A stretch of 16,327 bases of DNA from a virus (taxonomy: Duplodnaviria > Heunggongvirae > Uroviricota > Caudoviricetes), in IMG/VR virus record IMGVR_UViG_2609459850_000004, positions 1 through 16,327 of that record. One strand, 5' to 3'. The translations under genes were made by a program, and so were the position numbers. Under the pieces are notes generated by a model. The model had not been told where the DNA came from and did no database searches. It was given only the letters and a program-made list of their open reading frames with translations. Position 1 is the stretch's first letter. Each line of letters starts with the position of its first letter. Positions 1 through 16,327 of this stretch are shown piece after piece.

Positions 1-756
1 TTATTCAGAATCAATATCTTTTAAATCATCCTGAATCGCTTGTGCGTTCGGATTTTCCTGCGGTTTGAGTTCGCCGCCATTAGCGATGAAATCATGACGC
101 TGGAAGTACGCTTCGCGCACCATAATATAAGGATCGGACGACTGACGCAGCAGACCATCGGAATCCAGCAGCTGAGCGCGGGTTTCGATCCCTTCAAGCG
201 TCCATTTACCCACAGACATCGGCCAGGTCAGCCAGGAAAGAACCGGGTAAAGACCATCCGCCATATCACCACCGTCATCACGCAGCGTGAAGCTACCGTA
301 GAACGGTAACTGAACGTAAGGCCCATAACCCACGCCATAATGACCAAGCGTACTACCGAAGCGGTGAGGTTCAGTCCGTTGCAGTTTCGGGTTCGCCATC
401 CCTGCAACATCAATAAAACCGCCCATCCCCAAAATGGTGTTCAGGAAAAAGCGGGTAAAGTGGACCATCCCCTGATAAGGGTCGCCCTGCAAGAAGTAGT
501 TAACCATCACCGCAGGTTCTTCAAGGTTGCCAGTAAAGTTGCTCAAACCGTTACGCGCCGGTTGCGGAACATAATCACGCCAGGCGACAGCGACCGGTCG
601 AACAATATACGGGTCTAATACATTGAAGTTGAAGTTGTACATGGTGCGGTTGAACCCTTCTAACGGGTCAGAACGCCCTTGCTGATCTGTACCGGAACTC
701 GCACACCCCACCAGAAGCGTAGTTCCCAGAGCAAGCGCCGACAGGCGAAGCTTCAT
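1..756 (-). CDS. mlaA: MlaA (VacJ) outer-membrane lipoprotein of the Mla phospholipid-transport system
   Basis: Complete 251-aa ORF (stop = revcomp of nt 1-3). N-terminus MKLRLSALALGTTLLVGCASS has a lipoprotein signal with lipobox LLVGC. I recognise the sequence as E. coli MlaA/VacJ, and the neighbourhood (yfdC, argW) matches. Confidence 0.93.
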   Translation of the reverse strand: MKLRLSALALGTTLLVGCASSGTDQQGRSDPLEGFNRTMYNFNFNVLDPYIVRPVAVAWRDYVPQPARNGLSNFTGNLEEPAVMVNYFLQGDPYQGMVHFTRFFLNTILGMGGFIDVAGMANPKLQRTEPHRFGSTLGHYGVGYGPYVQLPFYGSFTLRDDGGDMADGLYPVLSWLTWPMSVGKWTLEGIETRAQLLDSDGLLRQSSDPYIMVREAYFQRHDFIANGGELKPQENPNAQAIQDDLKDIDSE

Positions 757-1049
757 AAATGTCTCCCTGTTTTTTTATGGCTTATGCAGTTTGCCATCCA
801 TGACGGAACGATACCGTATCCGCCTGTTTAGGTGTGGGCGATTGTAACAGCACGTCAACTGATGTCCAGACGCCCTGATTTGCTGATTTGATCATAGCCT
901 GGTAATCGCCACCCTGTAGGCTACTTGATTCTATAGAAACAGAAAAAGGCAAACGCAGCCTTTTCTACATTTTCAGAGTAACTCCCGTCAGTTGCGAGCA
1001 AAAAAGCCGCTACGCTTTAGCTATACGTGCTAATTCAAGAGAAGAGACC

Positions 1050-1982
1050 ATGGACAACGACAAAATTGATCAACACAGCGACGAAATTGAAGTTGAGAGC
1101 GAAGAAAAAGAGCGCGGCAAAAAAATAGAAATAGATGAAGACCGACTCCCCTCCCGGGCGATGGCAATTCATGAGCATATCCGCCAGGATGGTGAAAAAG
1201 AGCTGGAACGCGACGCAATGGCGCTACTGTGGTCAGCCATTGCGGCGGGTCTGTCGATGGGCGCTTCGTTACTGGCAAAAGGGATATTTCAAGTCGAACT
1301 GGAAGGTGTGCCGGGCAGCTTCTTGCTGGAGAATCTCGGTTATACCTTTGGTTTTATTATCGTCATTATGGCCCGCCAGCAATTATTTACCGAAAATACC
1401 GTGACTGCGGTACTACCCGTCATGCAAAAACCGACAATGAGCAACGTCGGCTTACTTATACGGTTATGGGGCGTCGTGCTGCTGGGTAATATTCTCGGGA
1501 CAGGTATTGCGGCGTGGGCATTTGAATATATGCCTATCTTCAATGAAGAAACTCGCGATGCATTTGTCAAAATCGGCATGGATGTGATGAAGAACACCCC
1601 CAGCGAGATGTTTGCCAACGCGATCATTTCCGGCTGGCTGATCGCCACTATGGTTTGGATGTTTCCTGCAGCGGGTGCGGCAAAGATTGTGGTGATTATA
1701 TTGATGACCTGGCTTATTGCCCTGGGTGACACCACCCATATCGTGGTCGGTTCTGTTGAAATCCTCTATCTGGTGTTTAACGGTACGCTGCACTGGAGCG
1801 ATTTCATCTGGCCCTTCGCACTACCTACTTTAGCGGGGAACATCTGCGGCGGCACCTTTATCTTCGCGTTAATGAGTCATGCACAGATTCGTAACGACAT
1901 GAGCAATAAGCGTAAAGCAGAAGCACGCCAAAAAGCAGAACGTGCGGAAAACATTAAGAAAAATTATAAAAACCCGGCATAA
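1050..1982 (+). CDS. yfdC: YfdC inner-membrane protein, formate/nitrite transporter (FNT) family
   Basis: 310-aa ORF with an acidic N-terminus followed by multiple hydrophobic segments. Recognised as E. coli YfdC, which lies between mlaA and argW in E. coli; TAA stop at 1980-1982. Confidence 0.88.
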   Translation: MDNDKIDQHSDEIEVESEEKERGKKIEIDEDRLPSRAMAIHEHIRQDGEKELERDAMALLWSAIAAGLSMGASLLAKGIFQVELEGVPGSFLLENLGYTFGFIIVIMARQQLFTENTVTAVLPVMQKPTMSNVGLLIRLWGVVLLGNILGTGIAAWAFEYMPIFNEETRDAFVKIGMDVMKNTPSEMFANAIISGWLIATMVWMFPAAGAAKIVVIILMTWLIALGDTTHIVVGSVEILYLVFNGTLHWSDFIWPFALPTLAGNICGGTFIFALMSHAQIRNDMSNKRKAEARQKAERAENIKKNYKNPA

Positions 1983-2017
1983 ATGGCGAGGGTTTAAGCA
2001 ATCGAGCGGCAGCGTAC

Positions 2018-2046
2018 TTACCCCGCACTCCATTAGCGGGTATACT
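2018..2046 (+). promoter_or_regulatory. Putative sigma70 promoter of the tRNA-Arg gene
   Basis: TATACT hexamer at 2041-2046, 11 nt upstream of the mature tRNA 5' end, with a weak -35-like TTACCC at 2018-2023 (17-bp spacer). Pattern only, no experimental support. Confidence 0.3.
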
Positions 2047-2057
2047 CATGCCGCATT

Positions 2058-2132
2058 GTCCTCTTAGTTAAATGGATATAACGAGCCCCTCCTAAGGGCT
2101 AATTGCAGGTTCGATTCCTGCAGGGGACACCA
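2058..2132 (+). tRNA. argW: tRNA-Arg (anticodon CCU)
   Basis: 75-nt cloverleaf: acceptor stem GTCCTCT/AGGGGAC, anticodon stem AGCCC/GGGCT with loop CTCCTAA (anticodon CCT), T-arm GGTTCGATTCC, discriminator A and encoded CCA at 2130-2132. Confidence 0.93.
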
Positions 2133-2293
2133 TTTATCAGTTCGCTCCCATCCGTACCAGTCCGCAAAATCCCCTGAATATCAAGCCTTCCGTAGATTCA
2201 CAGTTCGTCATGGTCCGCTTCAGATCGTTGACAGCCGCACTCCATGACGGGTAAAAAGTGGATAAAATAATTTTACCCACCGGATTTTTACCC

Positions 2294-3451
2294 ATGCTCA
2301 CCGTTAAGCAGATTGAAGCAGCAAAGCCGAAAGAAAAACCATACCGCCTACTCGATGGTAATGGCCTGTACCTTTATGTCCCTGTGTCAGGGAAAAAGGT
2401 ATGGCAGCTTCGCTACAAGATTGACGGTAAGGAGAAAATCCTGACCGTCGGAAAATATCCGCTAATGACTTTGCAGGAGGCAAGAGATAAAGCATGGACC
2501 GCGAGGAAAGACATCTCGGTTGGCATCGATCCGGTAAAAGCGAAAAAGGCTTCGTCTAACAACAATTCCTTTAGTGCCATTTACAAGGAATGGTACGAGC
2601 ACAAGAAGCAAGTCTGGTCAGTAGGCTATGCAACTGAACTTGCCAAAATGTTTGATGACGACATTTTACCCATCATCGGCGGTCTTGAGATTCAGGATAT
2701 TGAGCCGATGCAACTGCTGGAAGTAATCCGCAGATTTGAAGATCGCGGTGCAATGGAGCGAGCCAACAAAGCCCGCAGAAGATGCGGCGAGGTTTTCCGT
2801 TACGCTATTGTCACCGGCAGGGCTAAATATAACCCGGCACCTGACCTTGCTGACGCCATGAAGGGGTACCGCAAGAAGAACTTCCCGTTTCTTCCTGCAG
2901 ACCAGATCCCGGCATTCAATAAAGCACTGGCAACATTTTCAGGAAGTATCGTATCGCTCATTGCCACCAAGGTTTTACGCTACACTGCCCTAAGAACGAA
3001 AGAGCTTCGTTCCATGCTATGGAAGAACGTCGATTTTGAAAACAGGATTATCACCATCGACGCCAGTGTGATGAAGGGCCGCAAGATTCATGTTGTTCCT
3101 ATGTCAGACCAGGTGGTTGAGCTTCTCACTACGCTAAGCTCCATCACTAAACCAGTCTCAGAGTTTGTTTTTGCCGGGCGCAACGATAAGAAGAAGCCAA
3201 TCTGCGAGAACGCGGTATTGCTTGTGATCAAACAAATCGGCTATGAAGGTCTGGAAAGCGGTCACGGATTCAGGCATGAATTCAGCACGATTATGAACGA
3301 GCACGAATGGCCTGCCGACGCCATTGAAGTGCAACTGGCACATGCCAACGGCGGATCTGTGCGTGGAATTTACAATCATGCTCAGTATCTCGATAAGCGC
3401 AGAGAAATGATGCAGTGGTGGGCGGACTGGCTTGATGAAAAGGTAGAGTGA
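2294..3451 (+). CDS. intS: P4-family tyrosine integrase (IntS-like prophage integrase)
   Basis: ORF directly downstream of the tRNA and reading away from it. N-terminal arm-binding-type region (KPYRLLDGNGLYLYVPVSGKKVWQLRYKIDGKEK), C-terminal catalytic region with conserved R (LRTKELRS), HGFRHEF and a tyrosine (RGIYNHAQY). The ORF track starts at GTG 2258; I prefer ATG 2294 (385 aa) from my recollection of IntS. Confidence 0.9.
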   Translation: MLTVKQIEAAKPKEKPYRLLDGNGLYLYVPVSGKKVWQLRYKIDGKEKILTVGKYPLMTLQEARDKAWTARKDISVGIDPVKAKKASSNNNSFSAIYKEWYEHKKQVWSVGYATELAKMFDDDILPIIGGLEIQDIEPMQLLEVIRRFEDRGAMERANKARRRCGEVFRYAIVTGRAKYNPAPDLADAMKGYRKKNFPFLPADQIPAFNKALATFSGSIVSLIATKVLRYTALRTKELRSMLWKNVDFENRIITIDASVMKGRKIHVVPMSDQVVELLTTLSSITKPVSEFVFAGRNDKKKPICENAVLLVIKQIGYEGLESGHGFRHEFSTIMNEHEWPADAIEVQLAHANGGSVRGIYNHAQYLDKRREMMQWWADWLDEKVE

Positions 3452-3691
3452 GCGACCTTAAACTATCGAATAGCACAAAGCCTTGCAATCCAGTGCAAAG
3501 CTTTGTGCGTATCAGTTTTGTCTGAGTGTTCTACTGAAAACATAGTAAAATCGGTAACAGTTGGAAATCATTCAATACTCGCACTATCAGAAGTTCACCA
3601 GCCAGTCGTAGCCCGTACCTCCGTACGACGTGCTACGGTTTCATTTATCCGGTGCGCCGTAAAACCCCGTCCTTCAGGGCGTGGAGGATGT

Positions 3692-4164: not shown

Positions 4165-4878
4165 TTAATAACCTATTGCCAATAAACAACCGGCAGCTTG
4201 AGCAGCCGTCCATGAAGTCCCATTAACTGTTCCTAAAGCACGAACTTTGACTGTCGTTCTGGTAGAGCCATTAATATCGAAGCCCCACGTTGTGCCGGAC
4301 GATCCATTCCACGAGCTAGCAGAAGCACCTGAGTCAATCGCAGTGGCATGAAGCAGAGCGTTAGGAAATGCTATAGGTAATGTAACGGTTGCTAATCCAG
4401 TCGAATCGGCAACAAATCCAGAGACCCACTGGAAAATGATATTTTGTTCAACCCCATCAATTAAAGCCGGGATCAATATTCTCCCGGTATTACCAGTTAC
4501 CCCTACAGCAGCGCCAAGTTTTGCCGCTTCTCCCAAACCAAGATTTTCGAGAGCCGTTTCCACCGTGCCGTCCGATTTGATATCGCCAAACGGATTCTTG
4601 CGGCTCAGGTATTCAACAGCAAACCCCGATCCCAGCAATTCAACAAAACCGGGCAGATCACCATTATCAAGCACATCCCGTTGCGTTTTGTCACTTACAA
4701 ACTGGGCCAGAGCTGCAGCAATAAAGCTGGCCTGCCGAATAACCTTATTGACTTGCGCACTGGATGCTTTACCTGCTGTAAATCCGGATAAAAGCGCGGG
4801 CAACGCTTCCCATTCCTCCTGCGATATAACATTGGCACTTCGATCCGTTGCAAACGCTTTAAAGTCATTTTTCGCCAT
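4165..4878 (-). CDS. Phage tail-fibre protein (short; gpH / Mu S position)
   Basis: Position between the gpI-like gene and tfa. Start ATG at 4878 overlaps the stop of the upstream gene (TGATG); the track's alternative start is 4896. Gly/Ser/Thr-rich C-terminal half typical of fibre distal domains. Assignment is by synteny plus composition. Confidence 0.65.
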   Translation of the reverse strand: MAKNDFKAFATDRSANVISQEEWEALPALLSGFTAGKASSAQVNKVIRQASFIAAALAQFVSDKTQRDVLDNGDLPGFVELLGSGFAVEYLSRKNPFGDIKSDGTVETALENLGLGEAAKLGAAVGVTGNTGRILIPALIDGVEQNIIFQWVSGFVADSTGLATVTLPIAFPNALLHATAIDSGASASSWNGSSGTTWGFDINGSTRTTVKVRALGTVNGTSWTAAQAAGCLLAIGY

Positions 4879-5558
4879 CAGAGTAATACTCCCCATGCTC
4901 CTACATCAAAACCACTGATGAATTCGTTATCTATATCAAAACCAAAAAATTTTGAGCCTTCCGATGGGGTTTCCACCGAAGGTGTTTCAATGCCTCCCGC
5001 CCATACCCCGGCGGCTTTTACTGTGAGATACCCCTGTTTAATTGCCGCAATTAACTCACGCGATACATCTGAAATATCAGTATCAGGAAAGACCCAGACC
5101 GATATCGTCATGTCCTGGTTATCGACTATCTGCATTCGCAGTCCGGATCCTGCTGTCGCCGCGTCAAGAATTACCGGAAGCGAATCATTCCGTCCGTCCC
5201 AGTTATTAATCGCAATCTTCGCTTTAAGAATGACACGATAAGTTTCATCGCTGAGATACATGTATCCAGAATCAGGATCATATGGCCCCTGCCATACCCC
5301 CTGATCATATCCAATCCCGTCGGCATCCCAGCTGAAATAGACACCTGAGATAGGCTGGCTGACAACACGGCTGCGTCCGATCCACAATCCAAGAATGTCA
5401 AGTTGCACACCAACCGCAGAGTCAATATCAAATGCAGTAATCAGCCCTCTGGTGGCAGCCGCAACATCAATAAGCGGCCGGGTCATCAGATCAACATGTG
5501 CAAGAAATTTAGGTTTGGTGGCGTGATAGTTTGTGATTAGTTCGGTGTATTTGCTCAT
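4878..5558 (-). CDS. Baseplate protein, P2 gpI / Mu gp48-like (DUF2313/YmfQ-like)
   Basis: 226 aa; ATGA start/stop overlap with the J-like gene; synteny J-I-fibre. Family recognised from memory. Confidence 0.65.
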   Translation of the reverse strand: MSKYTELITNYHATKPKFLAHVDLMTRPLIDVAAATRGLITAFDIDSAVGVQLDILGLWIGRSRVVSQPISGVYFSWDADGIGYDQGVWQGPYDPDSGYMYLSDETYRVILKAKIAINNWDGRNDSLPVILDAATAGSGLRMQIVDNQDMTISVWVFPDTDISDVSRELIAAIKQGYLTVKAAGVWAGGIETPSVETPSEGSKFFGFDIDNEFISGFDVGAWGVLL

Positions 5559-6754
5559 GACTCCACCGTTATAACGATATTTTCCGGGGTACAGGACGCA
5601 GATTCGTTATATCTGATATCAATGTTTGATGACGACAAAGCCCCAGGGGATTTCCCAATCGTCAGTTCCTGAATATCGTAATAGCGTGCATTCCCGCCAC
5701 TCACCACGCCAAGATTCGCCGGTGAGTAAATGCGACTTAAAAGGACCGAATCACCAATCATCAGACTATTGATATAGTCGGAAATAGCCGGCTGGATCTG
5801 CTGCCCTATCTGTGAGGTATAACCCGTAAAAACTTTTAATTTAATCCGGGCATAAACAGGCACATCACTGGAACGCGAGAATTTGATTACATGGGGATTG
5901 CCGTATTTATCCGGAACCGTAACGGATGTTGTACCGTGAGTGGCTGTACCCTGGCCTTTATTCCCTCTAATAGCCTGAGCAATATCCGTCACATCACCGC
6001 CATCCACAATTACAGCAACAGAGTGTGGCGGTAACCCGTTACCGTCCTCCGAACCAGTATCGTTTTCATAGAGTTTGTGGCGGGTTACACCGGTAACATT
6101 AGAAACAGCACCATCCAGTGCTTCAAATGGGGTTATTGATGGCAACGCAACACTTTGCGACTGGCGGATACGTAACTCCGCATCAGTTTCTGCTGGAGTG
6201 CCTACAGTAGCTGCAGCAGGATTGGTTACCGAAACCCAGCCACGGGTCGGTGTGTTAATGGTGGTAATAGTCCCGGCCATCGCCGCAACCGAACCGCTAT
6301 TCGCACATGTGGCCGTCACCAGCACAGTACCATCAACCCCGATTGCTACACTCGCGGGAAAATTCCAGATAATGCCGTTTTTATCCCGTGCGGAGCCATT
6401 CGTGATAGTCGTGCCAGCCGTACCGGTTAACAGAAGGTCAGCAGTAGAGTTTGTTGCTACTTTTCGCGTGATCCCGTTAATTTTCACATTGCTGCTAAGC
6501 GCTGCGGCCTGCGCTGTCGTCGGTGAAAACGAGTTGTAGATCTCGATAGCGGTATTGTTAGCATCATGCACAGCCAGAGCCACCAGCGCGACCATTTGCC
6601 CATCTTTGCTGTCTGGTTCGAGGTAGGCATCACTACCGTAAATCTGCCTGAAATAGCTGGTCAGTGTATCGAGGATTGTCTGGTAATCAGGCGCACTAAT
6701 CCCCTGGGCGGTTACCGTTGCCGATAGCCCCAGCGTGTCGAGGTTCAAAGCCAT
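5555..6754 (-). CDS. Baseplate J-like protein (P2 gpJ / Mu gp47 family)
   Basis: 399 aa; size and position between the W-like and I-like genes, with translational coupling on both sides. Confidence 0.75.
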   Translation of the reverse strand: MALNLDTLGLSATVTAQGISAPDYQTILDTLTSYFRQIYGSDAYLEPDSKDGQMVALVALAVHDANNTAIEIYNSFSPTTAQAAALSSNVKINGITRKVATNSTADLLLTGTAGTTITNGSARDKNGIIWNFPASVAIGVDGTVLVTATCANSGSVAAMAGTITTINTPTRGWVSVTNPAAATVGTPAETDAELRIRQSQSVALPSITPFEALDGAVSNVTGVTRHKLYENDTGSEDGNGLPPHSVAVIVDGGDVTDIAQAIRGNKGQGTATHGTTSVTVPDKYGNPHVIKFSRSSDVPVYARIKLKVFTGYTSQIGQQIQPAISDYINSLMIGDSVLLSRIYSPANLGVVSGGNARYYDIQELTIGKSPGALSSSNIDIRYNESASCTPENIVITVES

Positions 6755-7108
6755 TTATGCCTCGCTTGTTACAGTCGTCTGGCCGTAGATTGTGTCAATG
6801 GAGGAAGTGAAAGTGACGCGTCGGCTGTTGCCGTCATAATTGGTATCGAAGGAAAGAATCGACAGAACGCCCGGCGTGTCCTGTATGCGTTCGCGTATAG
6901 CCAGGATGTAGACGTCTGATCGCTGTTTCCCAAGCACTGACTGAACATACGGCGTACCTTCCGTCAGATCGAGAAACCACTGACCGCGCCACAGCTCGAA
7001 ACGGGTTTTTACGGCCTGGGCGACACACTCCGGACTGTCTATAAGGAAGGTGTCGTCACCCTGCCCGAAAGTGTAATCACCGTCAGCATCTTCTCGTCGG
7101 TATCGCAT
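6755..7108 (-). CDS. Small baseplate protein, gpW / gp25 / Mu gp46-like
   Basis: 117 aa; sits between the V-like and J-like genes and its start overlaps the V stop (TAATG). Assignment mainly by size and synteny. Confidence 0.5.
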   Translation of the reverse strand: MRYRREDADGDYTFGQGDDTFLIDSPECVAQAVKTRFELWRGQWFLDLTEGTPYVQSVLGKQRSDVYILAIRERIQDTPGVLSILSFDTNYDGNSRRVTFTSSIDTIYGQTTVTSEA

Positions 7109-7848
7109 TATTGCGGCCCTCCAGTAGTCCCCCCGCCTGTCTGAACTCCGCCATGTTTATGCGTGGCGACACTTATACCTGAAGCTGTCACATCATTCGT
7201 TACCGTAACCGGCCCAAGCATCGTCGCAGTACCACCACTTTCTCCCATTCCCTGAGACAGGTTACCGTTAATCGTTACGTTGCCGTTCAGCGTGATGGTC
7301 GGGGATGTGATTGTCGTTCCACCTTCAGCCGTAGCCGTAAGCTGGCCCGGCGTTTTAATGGTGATGTTATGTCCTGCAGCGACCTCTACGAACGCCGCAC
7401 CATCATCGGTTCGCAGCTGCGCGGCGCTGGTGCTGATACCACTGATTTTCTGTGCTTGCGACTGCGGGCCAACGATGGCGAACGCATCAGATAAGTCATG
7501 CTGGCGCGGGTCGACGGTCTCCTGAACGCCGCCGCTCTGCCACCAAAAATCAATGCAACGGTCGGCAAAGATCAGCAGGCACTCGTCGCCTTCTTTTACC
7601 GGAAAGGTCAGCGTGCAACCGCCGCCGCGCGGGAAGATAACCGGCACATCCACCAGCGGTTTTAATTCGGTGGAGCCATCGCCAACAATACCGCGAAGCG
7701 CCACTTCTACTGTGCAGGTTACAGCGTCAGGATCGAACGACTGAATGATGCCAGGCATCGCCACGCGCATTTGGGTAGACACTGAATCGGCAATGGCCTG
7801 CGCGGTCTGCTGCTCACCGCCGATCTGTGATTGAGTTGGAATTGGCAT
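7108..7848 (-). CDS. Baseplate spike/hub protein (P2 gpV / Mu gp45 family)
   Basis: 246 aa; C-terminus ...ATHKHGGVQTGGGTTGGPQ matches the gpV apex motif (P2 gpV ends HTHKHPGDSGGTTGSPL) and N-terminal ...MPGIIQSFDPDAVTCTVEV resembles the gpV OB-fold start. An internal Met (MRVAMPGII) could be the true start. Confidence 0.8.
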   Translation of the reverse strand: MPIPTQSQIGGEQQTAQAIADSVSTQMRVAMPGIIQSFDPDAVTCTVEVALRGIVGDGSTELKPLVDVPVIFPRGGGCTLTFPVKEGDECLLIFADRCIDFWWQSGGVQETVDPRQHDLSDAFAIVGPQSQAQKISGISTSAAQLRTDDGAAFVEVAAGHNITIKTPGQLTATAEGGTTITSPTITLNGNVTINGNLSQGMGESGGTATMLGPVTVTNDVTASGISVATHKHGGVQTGGGTTGGPQ

Positions 7849-7858
7849 AAAAACCCCA

Positions 7859-7882
7859 TAAAAAAACCAGCCGAAGCTGGTT
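7859..7882 (-). terminator. Rho-independent terminator-like hairpin (minus-strand sense)
   Basis: Stem AACCAGC (7865-7871), loop CGAA, stem GCTGGTT (7876-7882), preceded on the plus strand by A7, which is a T-run after the hairpin on the minus strand. Lies about 10 nt upstream of the gpV-like start. Confidence 0.4.
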
Positions 7883-8059
7883 TGGTATCAATTACTAAGC
7901 TACATCAGTGTGAAGTAAGGCTTTTCCGCTGCAATGGCACACATTCACAAGGTGTATTAGGATATGTTTGCAACAAGTAAGCATTAAAAATCAATTTCAG
8001 CCATGAAGCCGCCATAGAGTGGACCTGCACCATCGCATTCTTGACTACAGGAGTAACAA

Positions 8060-8350
8060 ATGGGATTTAGATTTCGCAAAAGAATCCGGATTGCGCCCGG
8101 ACTCGCGATCAACATTAGCAAAAGCGGAGTAAGCACTTCGATTGGTGGTAAAGGTTCCACCATTAACATCGGGAAAAAAGGCGTAAAGATGACAAATGGC
8201 CTTCCCGGCACTGGGCTGTCGCATACCACTAACCTTTACTCTCCCGGAAAATCGACAGAAAAAAAACAACTTACTCATAAGCAAAAAATAATTAGAAACA
8301 TCCTGTTCGTAATTATTGTGTTTATTATAATTAAAGCTCAATATTTTTGA
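8060..8350 (+). CDS. Small DUF4236-like protein with C-terminal transmembrane helix
   Basis: 96 aa; RBS AGGAG at 8049-8053 with 6-nt spacer. N-terminus MGFRFRKRIRIAPGLAINISKSGVSTSIGGKG...PGTGLSHT matches the DUF4236 pattern as I remember it; C-terminal ILFVIIVFIIIKA is hydrophobic. AT-rich. Confidence 0.6.
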   Translation: MGFRFRKRIRIAPGLAINISKSGVSTSIGGKGSTINIGKKGVKMTNGLPGTGLSHTTNLYSPGKSTEKKQLTHKQKIIRNILFVIIVFIIIKAQYF

Positions 8351-8355
8351 CGCAT

Positions 8356-8386
8356 GCCCGCCTATCTGGCGGGCTATTTTACTTTT
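8356..8386 (+). terminator. Rho-independent terminator between convergent genes
   Basis: Perfect 7-bp stem GCCCGCC (8356-8362) / GGCGGGC (8368-8374), loop TATCT, then T-rich TATTTTACTTTT. The lipoprotein stop codon lies inside the stem. Confidence 0.6.
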
Positions 8387-9264
8387 CGGCAGTCGTATGT
8401 TGCATACTGTCGCGGCGCATCCATGCTGGCTTGTACCCACTGAGCGTTTAGGATGGCTTTTCCTTTACGTTTAATGTATTCAATACCAACCCAACGACCG
8501 GGCAGACTGGTAGCAACCATCCACTCCATTTTTATATTATCCGGTTCGTTGTTAGTGCTGCCACCAGCACCGATGGGAGTAATTTTTTGCGTCTCTGGTT
8601 TCGCGCCATTAATTCTGGCCCAGCCATCAGCAGAGGAAAGATCTATCCTATACGGTCCACAAACTATTATGTAATTGATGCCAAGTTTTTCGTTGCTGCG
8701 AGCTTTCCTGCTTTTCTCATAATCTTCCTTCGCAACATCATTCATCTTTTGATAGATAGCAGGTTGTTTTAAAGAAAACTCATTCAGCTTCTTAATAAAG
8801 TTTTCTCGCGGAACCTCTGCAAGCCCCATAGATTTTCTATCAAGGATATAGTCATCATATATCTTTGACACAACAGAAAGTGATGACAGTTTTTTAGCTA
8901 AATCATTTGCAAAGTTTAGATAATTAAGTGGTGAGTTGTCTCTTATATCAATAGCTCTAACTCCACCTGTACCGTATTCATGATAAGCAGCATAAAAAAC
9001 AGGTATACTTTCAGGTTTTTTGTTAATCGCTTTAATTAGTCCTTCTGGACCGCAAGACTCTCCACTCCAGTCAATAAGCGACTTCCCTTTCGATTTCCAT
9101 GTTTGGCAATCATCAGCTGATAAAATTAAAATTGGCTGCCACCCCGGGCGTTTTTTGTAACTAACATTCTTATCAGAATTGAAGCCTGCATTTGCGCATC
9201 CAGAAACGAGCAGCACCGACAGGAAAATCACACTGTATCGAAGTCCATTCATGTTCTTATACAC
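8374..9264 (-). CDS. Lipoprotein of unknown function
   Basis: 296 aa; signal peptide with lipobox LLVSGC; strong RBS AGGAGGAGG upstream of the GTG start at 9264 (alternative ATG at 9252). AT-rich compared with neighbours. Confidence 0.65.
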   Translation of the reverse strand: MYKNMNGLRYSVIFLSVLLVSGCANAGFNSDKNVSYKKRPGWQPILILSADDCQTWKSKGKSLIDWSGESCGPEGLIKAINKKPESIPVFYAAYHEYGTGGVRAIDIRDNSPLNYLNFANDLAKKLSSLSVVSKIYDDYILDRKSMGLAEVPRENFIKKLNEFSLKQPAIYQKMNDVAKEDYEKSRKARSNEKLGINYIIVCGPYRIDLSSADGWARINGAKPETQKITPIGAGGSTNNEPDNIKMEWMVATSLPGRWVGIEYIKRKGKAILNAQWVQASMDAPRQYATYDCRKVK

Positions 9265-9308
9265 TCAACCTCCTCCTGAACGAGCTATAGTCGCCTGGCT
9301 AATCAGAT

Positions 9309-9322
9309 GGCACTGTTGCAAA
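9309..9322. repeat. IS26 terminal inverted repeat (14 bp)
   Basis: GGCACTGTTGCAAA, the perfect reverse complement of 10115-10128. Confidence 0.95.
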
Positions 9323-9360
9323 GTTAGCGATGAGGCAGCCTTTTGTCTTATTCAAAGGCC

Positions 9361-10065
9361 TTACATTTCAAAAACTCTGCTTACCAGGCGCATTTCGCCC
9401 AGGGGATCACCATAATAAAATGCTGAGGCCTGGCCTTTGCGTAGTGCACGCATCACCTCAATACCTTTGATGGTGGCGTAAGCCGTCTTCATGGATTTAA
9501 ATCCCAGCGTGGCGTTGATTATCCGTTTCAGTTTGCCATGATCGCATTCAATCACGTTGTTCCGGTACTTAATCTGTCGGTGTTCAACGTCAGACGGGCA
9601 CCGGCCTTCGCGTTTGAGCAGAGCAAGCGCGCGACCATAGGCGGGCGCTTTATCCGTGTTGATGAATCGCGGGATCTGCCACTTCTTCACGTTGTTGAGG
9701 ATTTTACCCAGAAACCGGTATGCAGCTTTGCTGTTACGACGGGAGGAGAGATAAAAATCGACAGTGCGGCCCCGGCTGTCGACGGCCCGGTACAGATACG
9801 CCCAGCGGCCATTGACCTTCACGTAGGTTTCATCCATGTGCCACGGGCAAAGATCGGAAGGGTTACGCCAGTACCAGCGCAGCCGTTTTTCCATTTCAGG
9901 CGCATAACGCTGAACCCAGCTGTCAATCGTGGAGTGATCGACATTCACTCCGCGTTCAGCCAGCATCTCCTGCAGCTCACGGTAACTGATGCCGTATTTG
10001 CAGTACCAGCGTACGGCCCACAGAATGATGTCACGCTGAAAATGCCGGCCTTTGAATGGGTTCAT
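9361..10065 (-). CDS. tnp26: IS26 transposase Tnp26 (DDE, IS6 family)
   Basis: Translation MNPFKGRHFQRDIILWAVRWYCKYGISYRELQEMLAERGVNVDHSTI...GDPLGEMRLVSRVFEM recognised as Tnp26. ATG at 10065 lies 64 bp inside the element end; the track ORF begins at an upstream TTG (10083). Confidence 0.95.
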   Translation of the reverse strand: MNPFKGRHFQRDIILWAVRWYCKYGISYRELQEMLAERGVNVDHSTIDSWVQRYAPEMEKRLRWYWRNPSDLCPWHMDETYVKVNGRWAYLYRAVDSRGRTVDFYLSSRRNSKAAYRFLGKILNNVKKWQIPRFINTDKAPAYGRALALLKREGRCPSDVEHRQIKYRNNVIECDHGKLKRIINATLGFKSMKTAYATIKGIEVMRALRKGQASAFYYGDPLGEMRLVSRVFEM

Positions 10066-10114
10066 GTGCAGCTCCATCAGCAAAAGGGGATGATAAGTTT
10101 ATCACCACCGACTA

Positions 10115-10128
10115 TTTGCAACAGTGCC
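10115..10128. repeat. IS26 terminal inverted repeat (14 bp)
   Basis: TTTGCAACAGTGCC, the perfect reverse complement of 9309-9322. Confidence 0.95.
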
Positions 10129-10154
10129 CGTGCAGTTAAGCAGAGGGCTGAATA

Positions 10155-11306
10155 ATGGTGAACGAGAGACGAGATTATGAGGTTAATTTCCTGTACTACC
10201 CGGAAGTGTTCGCTGCGGCTCTGTCGCGTGTTGAACCAGACACGTCAGTCCTGGGCTGGCTGGGCCAGGCTCGCGCTCTGGCGTGCTGGTGTGAGCTGCT
10301 GAGGCTCGACCCACTGGAGACCTGTGTGGAGTGGTCTGCGCGTGGTGTGAACGCGGGTAAGGCCGACAGGGCAATGTTAGCGTCGGCGCTGCGTGACCTG
10401 GATGACCTCGACCGGCTGGCGGCGGCTGGGGCGTTCCTGCGCTCCTCCGGGGTGGCTGCTGACGTTGCTGCCGGGCGCATCGCTGTTCGTGAGCCCACCG
10501 AGGACGAGCTGGCTGCTCGTCAGGCGCATCTGGTTGCACTACGGGAACGTGCGGCTGCTGCTGCGGCGAAGCTGACGGAGGCTCGCATTAAGGCAACCGG
10601 TAGGGCGCGGATGCTGCTGCATCGCGCCAAAAAGCCGGGGAATGCGGCGCTGTACTGGAAGGCCAAGGAGCGAGCTGCGGAGCGTTTGCTGCCGTGCCCT
10701 GACGACGTGAAGTGCTCGGACTGGAGCACGTTCCTGCCGGTGCTGGGTCGCGTGTGGTGGAATGAGTCGCTTCTGGTGCCGCTGTACGGGGTGAACGAGT
10801 CACTACGGTTGGAGTGTATGTCAGTGGAGGTGATTTGCGGTCGCGCCAACCCTGAGGCGGCAGGTTCGCTGGGCGAGAAGCGTGGCCTCGAGAATGCACC
10901 GCGTGAGGGGCTGTTTTACCCGTTCGACCTGTCCAGCGTCCGTTCTGGTAACCCTCTGGTCATCTGCGAGGGGTTCATGTCGGGGCTGGCGCTCTCTCTG
11001 CTGATGGGCGGCAAGCTGCCGGTGATCTGCGCGATGTCGGTGGGTAACTTCGGGGCGACAGTGCAGACGCTGAATAAGTTTGTTATGGGTGACTCCCCGT
11101 TCGTACTGGTACCGGACATTGGCGGGCAGGATCTGGCTATCGATCAGGCTATCCCGAATGCCCGGGTGATCGACCTGTCGGCGGTACCGGGAGCCGAGGG
11201 CGTGGACGGCTACGACCCGTTCGATCTGCTGGCGCGTCATGGTGTCGAGATGGGACGTAAGTATCTGCGGAGCTTGTTTCGTGAGGCGCGTGACGCGAGC
11301 CTGTAG
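10155..11306 (+). CDS. Toprim-like domain protein (primase-related?), high GC
   Basis: 383 aa; RBS GAGGG 7 nt upstream of the ATG. C-terminal half carries NPLVICEGFMSGLALSLL...PVICAMSVGNFGATVQ...FVLVPDIGGQDLAIDQ, resembling Toprim motifs (DnaG-like EGxxD...DxD region). The Ala/Arg-rich N-terminal half is unrecognised. In-frame stop at 10149-10151 shows the ORF is not truncated by IS26. Confidence 0.55.
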   Translation: MVNERRDYEVNFLYYPEVFAAALSRVEPDTSVLGWLGQARALACWCELLRLDPLETCVEWSARGVNAGKADRAMLASALRDLDDLDRLAAAGAFLRSSGVAADVAAGRIAVREPTEDELAARQAHLVALRERAAAAAAKLTEARIKATGRARMLLHRAKKPGNAALYWKAKERAAERLLPCPDDVKCSDWSTFLPVLGRVWWNESLLVPLYGVNESLRLECMSVEVICGRANPEAAGSLGEKRGLENAPREGLFYPFDLSSVRSGNPLVICEGFMSGLALSLLMGGKLPVICAMSVGNFGATVQTLNKFVMGDSPFVLVPDIGGQDLAIDQAIPNARVIDLSAVPGAEGVDGYDPFDLLARHGVEMGRKYLRSLFREARDASL

Positions 11307-11337
11307 TGGTACCAGGTTTCTCTCTCTCGTTGTTCTC

Positions 11338-11363
11338 AGCCCGCTTCGGCGGGCTTTTATTTG
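11338..11363 (+). terminator. Rho-independent terminator
   Basis: Stem AGCCCGC / GCGGGCT with TTCG tetraloop, followed by TTTTATTTG; 32 nt after the stop at 11306. Confidence 0.6.
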
Positions 11364-11374
11364 AGGATCTCCCC

Positions 11375-11680
11375 ATGACCGACCAGACCACCACCATCGC
11401 CGACCTGGCGCTCTCACAATCCGCGTTTCTCGTCTCTCAGGCTGTCGTTGAGCTGGACGCCATGTTCGGCGAGGGCTATGCCGCTGCTCACCCGGCTGTG
11501 CTGGCTCAATTCCTGCAGACGGCGGGGGTCATCTTCGCCACACAGCTGCAGGCTTCTGCCGCGTTCGACCTTGCCTCGCAGCTCGACCGCCTGATTGGCT
11601 TGGGGCTGGCTTGCTGCAAGCCAATCAGGGTGCCTCGCACTAAAACGCCGGGGCCGGCTGCGATCAGTCCTTTGCTATGA
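11375..11680 (+). CDS. Hypothetical small protein (101 aa)
   Basis: ATG at 11375 preceded by GAGGA at 7-nt spacing, immediately after the terminator. Ala/Leu-rich with no recognisable motif. The track ORF begins upstream at 11306 without an RBS. Confidence 0.45.
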   Translation: MTDQTTTIADLALSQSAFLVSQAVVELDAMFGEGYAAAHPAVLAQFLQTAGVIFATQLQASAAFDLASQLDRLIGLGLACCKPIRVPRTKTPGPAAISPLL

Positions 11681-11828
11681 GGCGACGCCCCAGGGGTTCG
11701 CCCCTGATCAGCTGGAGTCCGTAGACCGGACGTCTGATGCCCGGTGGCGGGCGTTCTACCTCGCCAGCTATGGCTACTGCCTCGAGTACGCGGGGTTTTG
11801 ACCTGGGCGGCGGCTGCCGCGCTACCGG

Positions 11829-12356
11829 TTACTTCAGGTCAGGCATCCGGCGGGTGATCACCGTGTTGATGCGGTCGTTGTTCCATGGGCGACCGTTCGA
11901 CTGCAGGAGCCCTGCCTCGTTCAGCGCCTGGGCGATAGCTTTGTTGTCGTAGCGGAATCCCCGATCGCGCTGCTCCTCCCTCATGCGCCGTATGGTGGCC
12001 ATCACCTCGGCCTCGTCGTAATGCCCCGAAAATTCAGCGCCAGCGGGGCGCTGTGCTGCGTTTTGTGTTTCAGATGAGTTACTAGTCAGCTTTTCAGCCC
12101 GTGGCCTTGTAGCGCGTCCTGTTGGCTTCTGTAGCACATTGTGTTTCAGCGTATTCGAGATGTCCTGCAGCAGCTCCACCATCAGGTCGAGGCGGTTGCC
12201 GCTCTCCCCCTGCGGCTCTGGTATGCCAAGGTATGCACGGAGTGCGTCGGTAATCACGTCGGTGCGGGTACGGTTCGTTTTCTCGGCCAGCTCGTTCGTC
12301 TGCTCGAGCAGGTCGGCGGGGAGACGTAGGCTGAATGTCGGGCTTTTGCGCTGCAT
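11829..12356 (-). CDS. Ribbon-helix-helix DNA-binding protein with recombinase-like C-terminal domain
   Basis: 175 aa from ATG 12356, with AGGAG-containing RBS. N-terminus MQRKSPTFSLRLPADLLEQTNELAEKTNRTRTDVITDALRAYL is a typical RHH (CopG/Arc-like) segment. C-terminus EVMATIRRMREEQRDRGFRYDNKAIAQALNEAGLLQSNGRPWNNDRINTVI resembles the recombinase-family DNA-binding domain pattern (IA..LN..G....G..W....V..I). No serine-recombinase catalytic domain is present. Confidence 0.55.
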   Translation of the reverse strand: MQRKSPTFSLRLPADLLEQTNELAEKTNRTRTDVITDALRAYLGIPEPQGESGNRLDLMVELLQDISNTLKHNVLQKPTGRATRPRAEKLTSNSSETQNAAQRPAGAEFSGHYDEAEVMATIRRMREEQRDRGFRYDNKAIAQALNEAGLLQSNGRPWNNDRINTVITRRMPDLK

Positions 12357-12860
12357 CCGTGTTGCTCCTGTGTGGTCTGGTGCCACCGATTGAAACACGT
12401 TTGTAACTTCTCGTCTATTTCGACGTGTTGCGCTTGTGCTGCATAACCGGTACGGGTCGAGCCCTTCGGCTCGACTCTCTGGTGCCAGTGGACAAGCCCT
12501 GTGGACAATTTGCCGTGTCAGTGAATAAATGCGTGGCGCGATCACGACAGCTCGATAAGCGGTCGCCGTTCAGTGGCGTGAAGGGTTAGGATCGGTTAAG
12601 CTGATCGTCGTTCGTGGATTATGTTGGGTGATCTGCGGGCACAAAAAAAGCACCTGGCCGGGTGCTTTGATTGCCGGGGTTAAACCCCGTAGTTTCGAGT
12701 CAGTGTCTTGACGGACGTACTCGAAGGAAATCATACATCACGTTGGGTGATTCTCAAATCCTCGCTGAGAATTGTATCACGTCGATAAGATCGTGCAAGT
12801 CGATTTCCTCCGTAATCCCCCGCCTGACGCCGACTCCTACGTTTTTAAAGGAGTTGTAAC

Positions 12861-14420
12861 GTGCCAAAAACTAAACAAGAAATAGCCACTGTAACGCCGA
12901 TCACCGCTGCACCGTCACCGCTGTCGCTAAAATTGGGCGATGCGCTGTTTTCTGTCTTGTCGGTGTCTGCGGACTGGTCTGGTGACTACCGCGCTCAATT
13001 CGAGCTGTATGGCCTGAATGTAAAAGCTATCAACTCTGCCGTCGGCACTGCCGTCTGGCACGCTGGCAAGGGGCGGTTCCTCTCTGTCCTAAATGGCTCC
13101 CTGACCGAGTTCGATAAGGGCGACGGAATGAAGCTGCTGGAGGACTCCTGCGGCAAGTTCTGGCACCGCACCGATGCGTTTATCGCCCGCCTGACTGACC
13201 TCAAAATCAAGACCGACGACAAGGTAACCAAGGCGTGTATCGATATGGCTCGGGCTGTTCGTCAGGCGGGGGCTGAGTTCATCATGCTGCGCCGTCAGGT
13301 GGCAGTCGTTCGCCTCGACGTGGACATGTTCGCCACGGCTCCTCGCGTCGAACTGGTGGGTGAAACTGTGACGTTCGTCCGTCCTCATGCTCCCTATCCG
13401 GTGGCTAATGCCGACAGTGACGTGGTGGCTGATTGGCTGGTTCATTTCCCTCAATGCCATGAGTTCCTCGACGCGCTGGTTGCAGCCCGCTTTGCCTCAA
13501 GCCGTAAGAATGCCTACCTGTTTTTCCGTGCGCAGTCCGATTGGGGTAAGGGGCTGCTGTTTGGTGCTGGCGGCGTTCTGTCACGCCTGGGAGCGACGGT
13601 GGAGCTGTCCGAGGGGGAGCTGCTCAACATCCTGAGCGGTGCCAACTCCGGTGTAACGGCTAGTCACTTCATGGGGGCGCTGGCGCTGATCGTCAACGAA
13701 TGCACCAGGGTGACGAAAAAGCACTTTCGTCTTGAGGAGTCGCTGGCTCTGACGCCGAAGTACCTCACGACGCAGTGCGTGAACCTGTACATGAAAATTT
13801 TCACCAGTGCCGACCCGATCCCCGGACTGTCCGACTCCGACGGAATTGACCCGCAGGTGGCGAACCGCTTTTCTATGCTCGATCTGCAGGGCGACATCAA
13901 GACGCGCCCGCTGTTCCTGTCCGACAAGGGACGCTATGTCGACAGCCTGACGTCGTTCTTTGCCGCCGAGCTGAATGCCAGGGTGGCGTCCTATCAGGCT
14001 AAGGGCTTTGAGACCGCTCGCCGCGATGCCGACCATGTTCTGGCTGCTTTCACCACTGCGCATGGGTTGGCGAATGCTGCCGGGCTGATCACCGACGCGT
14101 ATGACGAAATTCGGGCTGAGTGGGTGGCGTTCGTCCATGGGCGTGTTGCTGATGGGCACCCGGACTTCCTCACCTTCGAATCAAAGGCTGGTTTGGTTCT
14201 CCGCTCTCCTGTCGGATGCTGGGGTAAGTTCCTCGACTGGTACGTGGACAAAAGCGAACCGCTGCGCCGTGCTCGCCTGATGCATGACCGCGATCTGATC
14301 ATCGGCTGCGCGAAAAAATACCGCGATGTTGGTGGCGCTGCTGAAGGCAAGGGGGTGCTCATCCCGTTCGTGTCCGGCTCGATGCCCGACAACGTCCACC
14401 GGTTCCGGTACAAAAATTGA
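12861..14420 (+). CDS. Hypothetical 519-aa protein, candidate replication-associated (unrecognised family)
   Basis: Long high-GC ORF with GTG start preceded by AAGGAG at 7-nt spacing, followed by a strong terminator and an iteron array. No family recognised; the replication role is inferred from context only. Confidence 0.65.
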   Translation: MPKTKQEIATVTPITAAPSPLSLKLGDALFSVLSVSADWSGDYRAQFELYGLNVKAINSAVGTAVWHAGKGRFLSVLNGSLTEFDKGDGMKLLEDSCGKFWHRTDAFIARLTDLKIKTDDKVTKACIDMARAVRQAGAEFIMLRRQVAVVRLDVDMFATAPRVELVGETVTFVRPHAPYPVANADSDVVADWLVHFPQCHEFLDALVAARFASSRKNAYLFFRAQSDWGKGLLFGAGGVLSRLGATVELSEGELLNILSGANSGVTASHFMGALALIVNECTRVTKKHFRLEESLALTPKYLTTQCVNLYMKIFTSADPIPGLSDSDGIDPQVANRFSMLDLQGDIKTRPLFLSDKGRYVDSLTSFFAAELNARVASYQAKGFETARRDADHVLAAFTTAHGLANAAGLITDAYDEIRAEWVAFVHGRVADGHPDFLTFESKAGLVLRSPVGCWGKFLDWYVDKSEPLRRARLMHDRDLIIGCAKKYRDVGGAAEGKGVLIPFVSGSMPDNVHRFRYKN

Positions 14421-14426
14421 ACAATA

Positions 14427-14448
14427 ACCCGCTTCGGCGGGTTTTTTT
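14427..14448 (+). terminator. Rho-independent terminator
   Basis: Stem ACCCGC / GCGGGT with TTCG loop followed by T7 (14442-14448); 7 nt after the TGA at 14418-14420. Confidence 0.7.
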
Positions 14449-14454
14449 ATGGCT

Positions 14455-14535
14455 TGGAACCTCGCTGGAACCTCGCTGGAACCTCACTGGAACCTTCTTA
14501 AACCCGCGCCATTGCTGGTTGGAACCTTTGGAACC
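14455..14535 (+). repeat. Direct iteron-like array of heptamer TGGAACC
   Basis: TGGAACC at 14455, 14466, 14477 and 14488 (exact 11-bp period, unit CTGGAACCTCG), plus two more copies at 14520 and 14529. Confidence 0.8.
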
Positions 14536-14606
14536 TGATTTTCTAACCTTCTCTCTCCAATAACGAAAGCTCTCTCAATTTCCCTGATTACTCTTTTTAA
14601 AAAATA

Positions 14607-14696
14607 GGTTCCAAGGTTCCATCGTTGATTTTAAAAGATTTTTTAAGGTTCCAATGCGGTTCCAAGGCGGTTCCACAAGGTTCCAAGGCGGTTCCA
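14607..14696 (-). repeat. Inverted-orientation array of the same heptamer (GGTTCCA)
   Basis: GGTTCCA at 14607, 14615, 14647, 14658, 14669, 14679 and 14690 (10-11-bp period in the last five, unit GCGGTTCCAAG). Separated from the direct array by an AT-rich spacer (14536-14606). Confidence 0.8.
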
Positions 14697-15565
14697 GCTC
14701 AATTCCTGCGCAGTTGACGCGCCGCAGCTGCACCCCGTTGGGGATGCACTTTGCGTGTCGTGTTTGGATCTGGTGTCGCTCTCCCCGGTGCGTGGTTTGC
14801 ACCTGCCGGATCTCCAGCTAAAAAAGCCCGGAGGGAAATGGGGGCAGTTTCCAGTGCTGGCGGGGGTTGGCGGGTGGTTTATGCACGGTGGATCGTGGTT
14901 GGCACCGTGCATTGGTGTTTGGCGGCAATCGCCGCGCCTACCGGTTTGCCAAATCCTGCCCCAACTTTCAGGGGGTACAGGGGCTTAAATGGGGTGCTGT
15001 CGTGTCGTTGGGTTGGTTCGGGGTTGAGGCGCTTAGAATGGCTCTGGTGCGTTCTGGTGGGGGCGTGCTTTCTAACCGGTAGGGGCGCAGCTGTCGCCGC
15101 GCTCCTGGTTGGGGTTAGCGCCAGCGTTCGAGCCGGTACCTGACAGTGATCCCGTTCTTCGACATGGTGTGGACGTAGTCCGGGTTTTTCAGCGTGAGGT
15201 CGATCGCCTTGGTGCGGTGCGTCTTGTATTTGTACCGGGCTTCCTCGGGGAAGTTCTCGCCTGTGACCATCTCATCCCATGACTCTGTTCACAGCGTATG
15301 CCATGCCGAGCGTACTGCGGAAGACAACGCCACGCTGTTGAAGCAAGTCAGCTTCTTAGACAAGCGTGTGACTGTATTGTCGGAGCAGCTGAAGCAGTTC
15401 GGGAACCTCTACAAGCAGAACAGGAGTTAAGACGGCAGAAGAACGAGAACGCTCAAGAGCTGACAAAGTCGGCACCAAAAATCGCCCCTGTGGCATTCAA
15501 GAAGAGATCAGGCCCTGATTATGGGCCTAGCATGTAATGCCAGGATGAATTGCTCTCTGTGCCTT

Positions 15566-16000: not shown

Positions 16001-16327
16001 TCAGTATTTACCACCTTGAATAACGCTTAAACCGTTTGATAGAGCCTTTTTATGATTACTTACCGTGCCTTTCCAGCCAAACTGCGGATTCAAGCGGTAG
16101 GTTTTGCTACGCCCGATTTTAGGACCCTCTAAAATAATTCCAAACTCAATGAGGTTTTTCACGGCACGGCTGACATGGGGTTTTTGCATGTTTAAAGCAT
16201 CAGCAATGTCTATCTGCGCTACCTGAATATAATTTTCATAATCAAGTTCAGCTAAAAGAGCCATTAAAACGCGCATTTGATCATGATTTAGTTCATTGGC
16301 GATAGTGATTAGTGCTGCTTGATTCAT
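16001..16327 (-). CDS. Putative winged-helix DNA-binding protein (regulator or replication-associated)
   Basis: 108 aa; start codon is the last three bases of the window. Central segment QIDIADALNMQKPHVSRAVKNLIEFGIILEG has an HTH-like pattern. Family not identified. Confidence 0.5.
   Translation of the reverse strand: MNQAALITIANELNHDQMRVLMALLAELDYENYIQVAQIDIADALNMQKPHVSRAVKNLIEFGIILEGPKIGRSKTYRLNPQFGWKGTVSNHKKALSNGLSVIQGGKY

Follow-up and report, generated by a model that had tools for sequence, protein, structure and literature searches.

Introduction

In IncQ plasmids such as RSF1010 the origin of replication (oriV) consists of iterons followed by the priming hairpins ssiA and ssiB, and replication takes place in the leading-strand mode only. 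These single-strand initiation (ssi) signals serve RepB' in the priming of the complementary strand, a role that single-strand origin (sso) elements have in rolling-circle plasmids. The ssiA signal comprises about 40 nucleotides (nt) with a base-paired hairpin at nt 7–27, a specific 5' hexamer and a GTG start triplet just 3' (PMC8567376). Furthermore, plasmids whose replication always uses the same strand as template possess a continuous compositional bias without a shift point (PMC2804667), and a strand which is left single-stranded turns G/T-rich through the deamination of C and A (PMC3269012). Here, a G/T-rich and A-poor stretch is described which covers positions 14700–15114 of a DNA of 16,327 nt (in the following: the window) and is located between an iteron origin and the stop codon of a leftward operon. 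A first-pass annotation had interpreted this stretch as a structured element, i.e. an ssi site, DNA forming a G-quadruplex (G4) or a non-coding RNA.

The stretch is a non-coding modular spacer, and its composition is probably the origin-proximal expression of a strand-asymmetric mutation pressure which acts on the whole replicon. According to this explanation A and C would have become rarer and G and T more frequent all over the top strand, including the synonymous sites of genes on either strand. As the cause we infer asymmetric replication, in which synthesis would run rightward from the iteron origin and the top strand would stay single-stranded for a long time. On the exposed top strand C would deaminate to U/T and A to hypoxanthine/G. 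The exposure would last longest just to the right of the origin, where the stretch is located, and a spacer would offer no constraint.

Strand bias of the stretch and of the replicon

The top strand of 14700–15114 consists of A 0.123, C 0.243, G 0.376 and T 0.258 (G+T 0.634; GC skew +0.215; AT skew −0.354), which confirms the about 400 bp of G/T-rich, A-poor DNA noticed before (A 12 %, G 38 %, T 26 %). It contains 13 runs of at least three G, whereas the median over 415-nt windows of the whole sequence is 4. The many G-runs are thus present, but their number equals the expectation from composition (13.7 ± 2.5 in mononucleotide shuffles, P 0.67), and only runs of at least four G are mildly enriched. 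The strong strand asymmetry is real as well; however, it is neither local nor the mark of a discrete structured element, but a property of the whole replicon. In the plasmid part of the window (10126–15285) A amounts to 0.165 versus T 0.243 and G to 0.318 versus C 0.274, and the non-plasmid parts are strand-symmetric. The whole top strand of two complete relatives shows the values A 0.16, C 0.28, G 0.32 and T 0.24. Almost every window across 13 kb has a negative AT skew, and in ten family members T exceeds A in 81–98 % of the 500-nt windows. The cumulative G+T excess rises monotonically around the circle without a turn, by +1530 over 13,256 nt, most steeply within the first kb behind a conserved hairpin at the left end of the stretch (hairpin A, see below).

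The origin of this bias can be narrowed down at synonymous sites. Two backbones were analysed, that of the closest full relative (L028) and that of pSYM9 (L029), whose primase-like proteins are 31 % identical. On the top strand, the four-fold degenerate sites show A 0.05–0.07 and G 0.41–0.42 in top-strand genes and A 0.10–0.12 and G 0.45–0.49 in bottom-strand genes, in both backbones. Since the third-position preference, read in the sense of each gene, is reversed between genes on the two strands, codon usage and transcription are excluded as causes and a strand-specific mutation pressure is indicated. The G+T content of the stretch (0.63) is near that of the synonymous sites (0.65–0.67). In addition, non-homologous filler and a gene for a helix-turn-helix (HTH) protein, which occupy the same slot in relatives, share the composition (filler A 0.12–0.13, G 0.37–0.41). 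Because unrelated filler, the HTH gene and four-fold sites all have this composition, the asymmetry does not mark a discrete element. The family shows the pattern expected for asymmetric replication, namely a continuous bias of one sign without a shift point at the synonymous sites of genes on both strands.

A dependence on the distance from the origin is also visible. In pSYM9 the G+T content of four-fold sites drops from 0.73 to about 0.59 with rightward distance (site-level r −0.10, P 1.2e-5; per-gene rho −0.76, P 7e-4), and the best of 51 anchors is the origin.

Several points weigh against this explanation or against the proposed mode of replication. In L028 the G+T content likewise declines with distance, but only weakly (site-level P 0.11, per-gene P 0.08), and the skew of this plasmid has a local maximum in the primase-like gene, at a great distance from the origin. 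The skew of the stretch is about twice the plasmid mean, its G+T content is 0.63 versus 0.55 in other intergenic DNA, and runs of at least four G reach about twice the expectation from composition (10 versus 5.1, P about 0.01–0.02); there is thus room for some local selection for G-richness. A near-invariant core and the stem of hairpin A show that parts of the stretch are under selection. Moreover, inverted iterons around an A+T-rich core would be equally suited for bidirectional melting. Finally, no rolling-circle initiator of the HUH type was found in the family, all initiators being related to helicases or primases (PHROG 35045, VapE, DUF927).

Coding capacity

The stretch had been regarded as non-coding and its open reading frame (ORF) 14751–15143 as spurious. 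Both assessments hold, and the conservation check on this ORF does not support a genuine coding gene. The internal ATG at 14838 is an ATA in pOZ182, and in the pSCZE1 lineage the deletion of one nt at 14927 leads to a frameshift and a stop. The versions L002 and L004 lack 19 nt (14756–14774) and 2 nt (14739–14740) near the annotated start. Between lineages the ratio of synonymous to non-synonymous changes in the frame of the ORF is 6:9 and 4:16, and in all six frames non-synonymous changes are at least as frequent as synonymous ones; in contrast, the adjacent gene for an 80-amino acid (aa) protein, which served as the control, shows ratios of 4:2 and 5:1. No matches to the ORF were found in Pfam or PHROG. 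The PGAP annotations contain no gene here, neither in the relatives nor in a 100 % identical contig of Escherichia coli ES3, with the exception of a 69-aa ORF in a single record. The statement that this is the only ORF of the stretch does not hold: open frames of 48–141 codons exist in each of the six frames, as a top strand poor in A offers few stop codons in any of them.

Conserved blocks and exchangeable filler

The comparison of 12 distinct full-length versions of the region, supplemented by about ten that are more distant, reveals a modular spacer in which three short blocks recur family-wide, namely hairpin A, the core and hairpin B. The hairpin A block (14716–14759, plus strand) is the left conserved boundary and comprises a stem-loop at 14729–14748 (TGCACCCC-GTT-GGGGaTGCA). 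It is present in every family variant examined, irrespective of the type of the replication initiator protein (Rep), and is kept even in pSYM9 with its diverged primase-like protein. Among nine distinct versions the variation is confined to the alignment columns 21–26, the stem having four or three G-C pairs and the loop one of six forms (GTT, GCT, ACT, TTC, TGC, TGA). Judged by its sequence, hairpin A is a candidate for a priming signal or for a weak rightward terminator.

The block is followed by about 200 bp of lineage-specific, replaceable G/T-rich filler (14760–14964); nine of the 44 matching PLSDB records align over at least 75 % of 14716–15114. In six other variants inspected the slot contains a 155-aa HTH gene (HTH_Tnp_1-like) on the minus strand together with unrelated filler, and no homology between these sequences and the filler of the window was detected at word size 7. 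The filler of pL73-3 (L030 3050–3180) contains short tandem repeats of three kinds, with three copies each of ACTGGTTCC, GGGTGTAAT and GGTGGATCGG. Some of them equal iterons that belong to other Rep types, so that module exchange may have left these repeats behind, or they may be additional binding sites. Within the filler of the window a perfect 10-bp inverted repeat, ATGCACGGTG/CACCGTGCAT with a loop of 12 nt, is located at 14881–14912 and appears in the sequence as well as in the folds of both strands. Its loop contains GGTGGATCG, which resembles the iteron of the VapE type, and relatives differ from it by substitutions only at 14895 within the loop or in the pair that closes it. A small hairpin at 14922–14935 (GCGGC-AATC-GCCGC; direct-repeat family D6) is a paralogue of the hairpin B motif, and its loop is the place of the deletion in the pSCZE1 lineage.

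The second block is a 35-nt core at 15025–15059, TGAGGCGCTTAGAATGGCTCTGGTGCGTTCTGGTG. It includes the heptamer TCTGGTG twice at a distance of 10 bp (15043–15049 and 15053–15059) and a −10-like hexamer TAGAAT (15034–15039). The core is identical in most aligned versions (L003 and L006 differ by one base each), while its flanks fall to about 75 % identity. The hexamer is changed to TAAAAT in pOZ182 and to TACAGT in pUL-CPE-08, with TAnnnT kept, and in pL73-3 the core is partly deleted. From its sequence the core may act as a binding site for a protein or as a promoter of low strength directed rightward. In the whole of L028, read in the orientation of the window, the heptamer TCTGGTG occurs eight times on the top and never on the bottom strand. 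The Chi site GCTGGTGG is absent from the five family members examined. A site for Xer recombination (cer/dif-like) at GGTGCGT was considered and dismissed by eye, as an XerD arm is missing. A 19-mer of the core, GCGCTTAGAATGGCTCTGG, was also found at four loci in three unrelated metagenome or viral contigs (L010, L011/L027 and L026, L011 and L027 being the same contig) with dissimilar flanks; these matches are probably due to chance at that database size.

The third block, hairpin B (GGGGCGCAGC-TGTC-GCCGCGCTCC, 15082–15105), lies 10 nt past the stop codon with which the leftward gene ends. A GC-rich hairpin was found at this position in every version inspected, and changes in the stem preserve the pairing: GCAGC/GCTGC is fully paired (L007, L013), and in L031 GGGGCGC/GCGCCCC is replaced by GGGGCGG/CCGCCCC. 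A U-tract after hairpin B is missing on either strand. Between L008 (about 1363–1381) and the equivalent place of L017 the hairpin behind the core has identical stems, but the loop reads TTCC in one plasmid and GGAA in the other; template switching within an extruded hairpin would be expected to produce such a loop inversion.

The origin and its exchange

The first-pass annotation had correctly placed the stretch beside an iteron region. The left boundary of the origin is the intrinsic terminator of the rep gene (14426–14447, plus strand; stem CCCGC/GCGGG followed by T7). The iteron origin itself (14455–14696) shows copies of TGGAACC with a period of 11 bp at 14455–14535, an A+T-rich centre and inverted copies, GGTTCCA, at 14607–14696, so that inverted iterons flank the A+T-rich core. 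The iterons were defined by the direct-repeat families D1–D5 and the inverted families I1–I8.

Initiator and iterons are swapped within the family as a cassette. A 519-aa Rep is combined with GGTTCCA or GGTTACA, a VapE protein with GGGTGGATC (seen in L006 and L007), and a DUF927 protein plus Rop with ACTGGTTCC; the cassettes cover 12861–14696 of the window, L006 1359–3000, L029 10675–12706 and L032 1–2070. Despite these swaps the sequence rightward of 14716 is unchanged, and the 383-aa primase-like gene as well as hairpin A are retained. In the pSYM9-type plasmid L029 a protein with a Rop domain (12462–12647; PF01815, E 1e-16) directly follows the DUF927 initiator, and a protein with a ProQ/FinO domain is encoded at 4394–5035 (E 4e-15). 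The two proteins hint at an RNA-based control in a replicon which is not of the ColE1 type.

Alternative explanations

Rho acts on untranslated RNA that is rich in C and poor in G. A possible, albeit doubtful, reading of the stretch is therefore a 3' untranslated region (3' UTR) with a Rho-dependent terminator of the leftward operon, which would be compatible with a composition caused by mutation pressure. Hairpin B would protect the 3' end of the mRNA, and the C-rich RNA would load Rho and halt transcription before the origin; in the relatives the leader would attenuate the HTH gene. Downstream of the stop codon and hairpin B the minus-strand RNA is indeed rut-like in composition at 14970–15080, where 78-nt windows contain 45–49 % C and 13–14 % G (C/G 3.2–3.6). 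C clearly exceeds G over at least about 78 nt at 15067–14970 of this strand, and a second C-rich, G-poor stretch lies beyond at 14820–14927. The DNA from the operon to the iterons was found to lack an intrinsic terminator in the leftward direction, hairpins A and B having no U-tracts on this side, and a hairpin with preserved pairing follows the stop codon in every version inspected. However, the bottom strand is C-rich plasmid-wide, so that the rut-like composition may be a by-product. Furthermore, stable RNA hairpins would hinder the loading of Rho, and degenerate rut sites leave the near-invariant 35-nt core unexplained.

It is less likely, though again reconcilable with the preferred explanation, that the displaced top strand exposes hairpin A, which would then be recognised by the 383-aa primase-like protein and prime the complementary strand. 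The idea of single-strand initiation survives in this reduced form only, that is for the hairpin A block of about 45 nt and for a top strand which, judging from the skew, would be single-stranded for long. Hairpin A abuts the iterons and outlasts the exchange of initiators and iterons with the primase-like gene as its conserved partner; its stem is invariant despite the six loop forms. Its layout resembles the description of ssiA (PMC8567376) in that a hairpin of 20 nt has a short flank on its 5' side and a GTG 7–9 nt downstream, and the one-sign skew of the replicon together with the gradient of pSYM9 would imply a long-lived single strand in need of a priming signal. On the other hand, a second copy on the complementary strand is missing within the origin. 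The sole inverted partner of 14716–14736, located at 15082–15105, is imperfect and 345 bp away, and pSYM9-type relatives have another hairpin in its place. The DNA fold of the top strand over the whole region is not significant compared with shuffles (z −1.58). The primase-like protein has no match in Pfam or the PDB, and its Toprim-like motifs, recognised by eye only, speak against an enzyme of the RepB' type.

It appears improbable that the core is a rightward promoter (TAGAAT, 15034–15039), from which a short G/U-rich transcript would be made that would stop close to hairpin B and be antisense to the 3' end of the leftward operon. In pSYM9-type plasmids the same promoter would drive an annotated rightward 84-aa ORF. 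The near-invariance of the core across divergent backbones, the fixed TAnnnT of the hexamer (TAGAAT/TAAAAT/TACAGT) and the Rop and ProQ/FinO proteins of pSYM9-type members, which suggest RNA-based control within the family, are in favour of it. Yet neither an acceptable −35 nor an extended −10 element accompanies the hexamer, which pL73-3 lacks altogether, a scan for consensus sigma-70 promoters was empty in the window and in two relatives, and hairpin B has no U-tract. The general idea of a non-coding RNA did not fare better. Rfam gave nothing within 14700–15114, either at the gathering threshold or at E-values up to 10; the sole weak matches in 14400–15300 fall on the hairpin of the rep terminator. 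The G-rich plus-strand RNA folds no better than shuffles (z −0.47), and the lower value of the minus-strand RNA (z −2.99) is driven by palindromes which are equally present in the DNA. An alifold analysis of the 12 distinct variants revealed no double-sided (compensatory) changes on either strand, the power being limited by the low divergence.

A G4 of the top strand which would act at the origin by helicase loading, R-loop stabilisation or fork pausing is very improbable. The only two G4Hunter peaks of at least 1.5 in the 16-kb window (14853–14883 and 14968–14998) do fall into the stretch, the longer G-runs are in the excess given above, and arrangements of four tracts appear if one loop of 15–17 nt is permitted (14833–14874 and 14971–15012). 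However, no G4 motif with loops of 1–7 nt or, relaxed, of up to 12 nt exists on either strand of the whole window. The maximum of 2.00 and the 14 windows of at least 1.5 are matched by 11 and 20 % of the shuffles (P 0.11–0.20), so that composition accounts for G-runs and peaks alike. In relatives the G-tracts are eroded (14840–41, 15023, 15062, 15111), and the homologous leader of the HTH variants is devoid of the tract arrangement.

Finally, that ORF 14751–15143, or its part from ATG 14838 to 15143, encodes a small hydrophobic protein is hardly credible: five of six aligned sequences keep an uninterrupted frame of 141 codons, GGAGG precedes the ATG by 3 nt and the predicted product has hydrophobic stretches, but the lost start, the frameshift with stop, the substitution ratios relative to the neighbouring gene, the long open frames expected in an A-poor strand, and the missing family matches and annotations all argue against it.

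Architecture of the window and distribution of the plasmid family

The 16.3-kb window is a mosaic of unrelated segments. Positions 1–3507 match the E. coli chromosome from mlaA to intS with a tRNA at 2058–2129, and matches to phage baseplate genes follow at about 4500–7650. The transposase of IS26 is encoded at 9361–10083, the piece of the plasmid family extends from 10126 to 15285, and an unrelated low-GC replicon begins after 15285. The segment 1–10128 is unrelated to the plasmid and represents either an IS26-mediated mosaic or an assembly chimera. Beyond the 15285/15286 junction the low-GC segment carries an HTH/Rep-like gene (16001–16327, minus strand). The same junction at 15285 occurs in L023 and L033. 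It is carried by the 100 % identical plasmid contig of E. coli ES3 (NZ_JCAPUP010000005) and by the metagenome contig L023.

The plasmid piece comprises four genes, which encode the 383-aa primase-like protein (10155–11306), a small protein, a ribbon-helix-helix protein (minus strand) and the 519-aa Rep (12861–14420). The C-terminal part of Rep matches PHROG 35045, a phage 'DNA primase'; a PDB sequence search gave no matches for Rep. The right end is formed, on the minus strand, by the 3' part of the conserved gene for the 80-aa protein (15115–15285, stop codon at 15115–15117), with which the leftward operon ends. In relatives this gene is annotated as a coding sequence of 243 bp; here it is truncated at 15285 by the junction with unrelated DNA.

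The piece belongs to a family of Enterobacteriaceae plasmids of about 12.5 kb (about 11–14 kb) which are classified as 'non-mobilizable' and were found in Escherichia, Citrobacter, Enterobacter, Serratia and Klebsiella. In 20 of 5,426 complete E. coli genomes members are present, on plasmids only; the region was found neither on E. coli chromosomes nor in phages, and the species representative genomes of GTDB contain a single stray contig with it. A literature search on the function of these plasmids yielded genome announcements only. The family is thus undescribed, and the G/T-rich stretch is an ordinary spacer within it. L028 also encodes a 919-aa protein with an SLT domain (6827–9586), which along its full length shares 47 % identity with proteins of phages of about 95 kb (ECML-606-1, phiT5282EW). 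This likeness may indicate a phage link or a satellite relationship of the 'non-mobilizable' plasmid.

Comparison with known systems

A striking local composition can be the passive reflection of a mutation pressure acting on the whole replicon. A G-rich spacer should hence be compared with the synonymous sites of the same replicon before it is called a G4, an ssi site or an RNA element.

The neighbourhood of the leftward operon is similar in sequence to Rho-dependent terminators with a protective stem-loop in the order of a stop codon, a GC-rich hairpin and about 100 nt of C-rich, G-poor RNA. Unlike in such terminators, the composition may just mirror the replicon-wide bias and a near-invariant core of 35 nt is atypical of rut sites.

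With the oriV of IncQ plasmids the family shares iterons and, behind them, a conserved hairpin of about 20 nt (14729–14748) with a GTG 7–9 nt downstream, the likeness to ssiA being one to its description. It further shares a helicase-type initiator and a separate primase-like protein, both encoded by the plasmid itself, and a composition which fits a displaced single strand. In contrast to IncQ plasmids, only one conserved hairpin instead of two inverted 40-nt signals is located beside the origin, the initiator is fused to a helicase-like domain and would bind inverted iterons, and the primase-like protein is not recognisably related to RepB'. In addition, the skew has one sign around the circle, which suggests a unidirectional rather than a two-way displacement. 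Somewhat speculatively, and with a probability we regard as low, these features could be combined into a unidirectional strand displacement from the iteron origin with a swappable helicase-type initiator, a conserved Toprim-like primase and hairpin A as the ssi signal of the displaced strand. The IncQ-like leading-strand-only mode would then have been reinvented with unrelated proteins, and the spacer would be the mutational footprint of this kind of replication. The bias also singles out the 44-nt hairpin as the first place in which a priming signal should be sought.

Rolling-circle plasmids with their sso elements resemble the family in the continuous one-sign bias without a shift point and in a hairpin-rich non-coding stretch adjoining the origin. 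They differ in their HUH initiator and nick site, both of which are missing here, where the origin is of the iteron type. The third system is the heavy strand of vertebrate mitochondrial DNA, which is replicated by strand displacement. Family members are bacterial plasmids, the gradient is significant in one of the two backbones analysed, and strand displacement is a proposal for them. Nevertheless, as in mitochondria, one strand is enriched in G+T at synonymous sites regardless of the orientation of the genes, and in pSYM9 the enrichment is graded by the position relative to the origin. A family without a rolling-circle initiator thus displays a bias like that of rolling-circle plasmids and mitochondrial DNA, which leads to a testable prediction on its replication.

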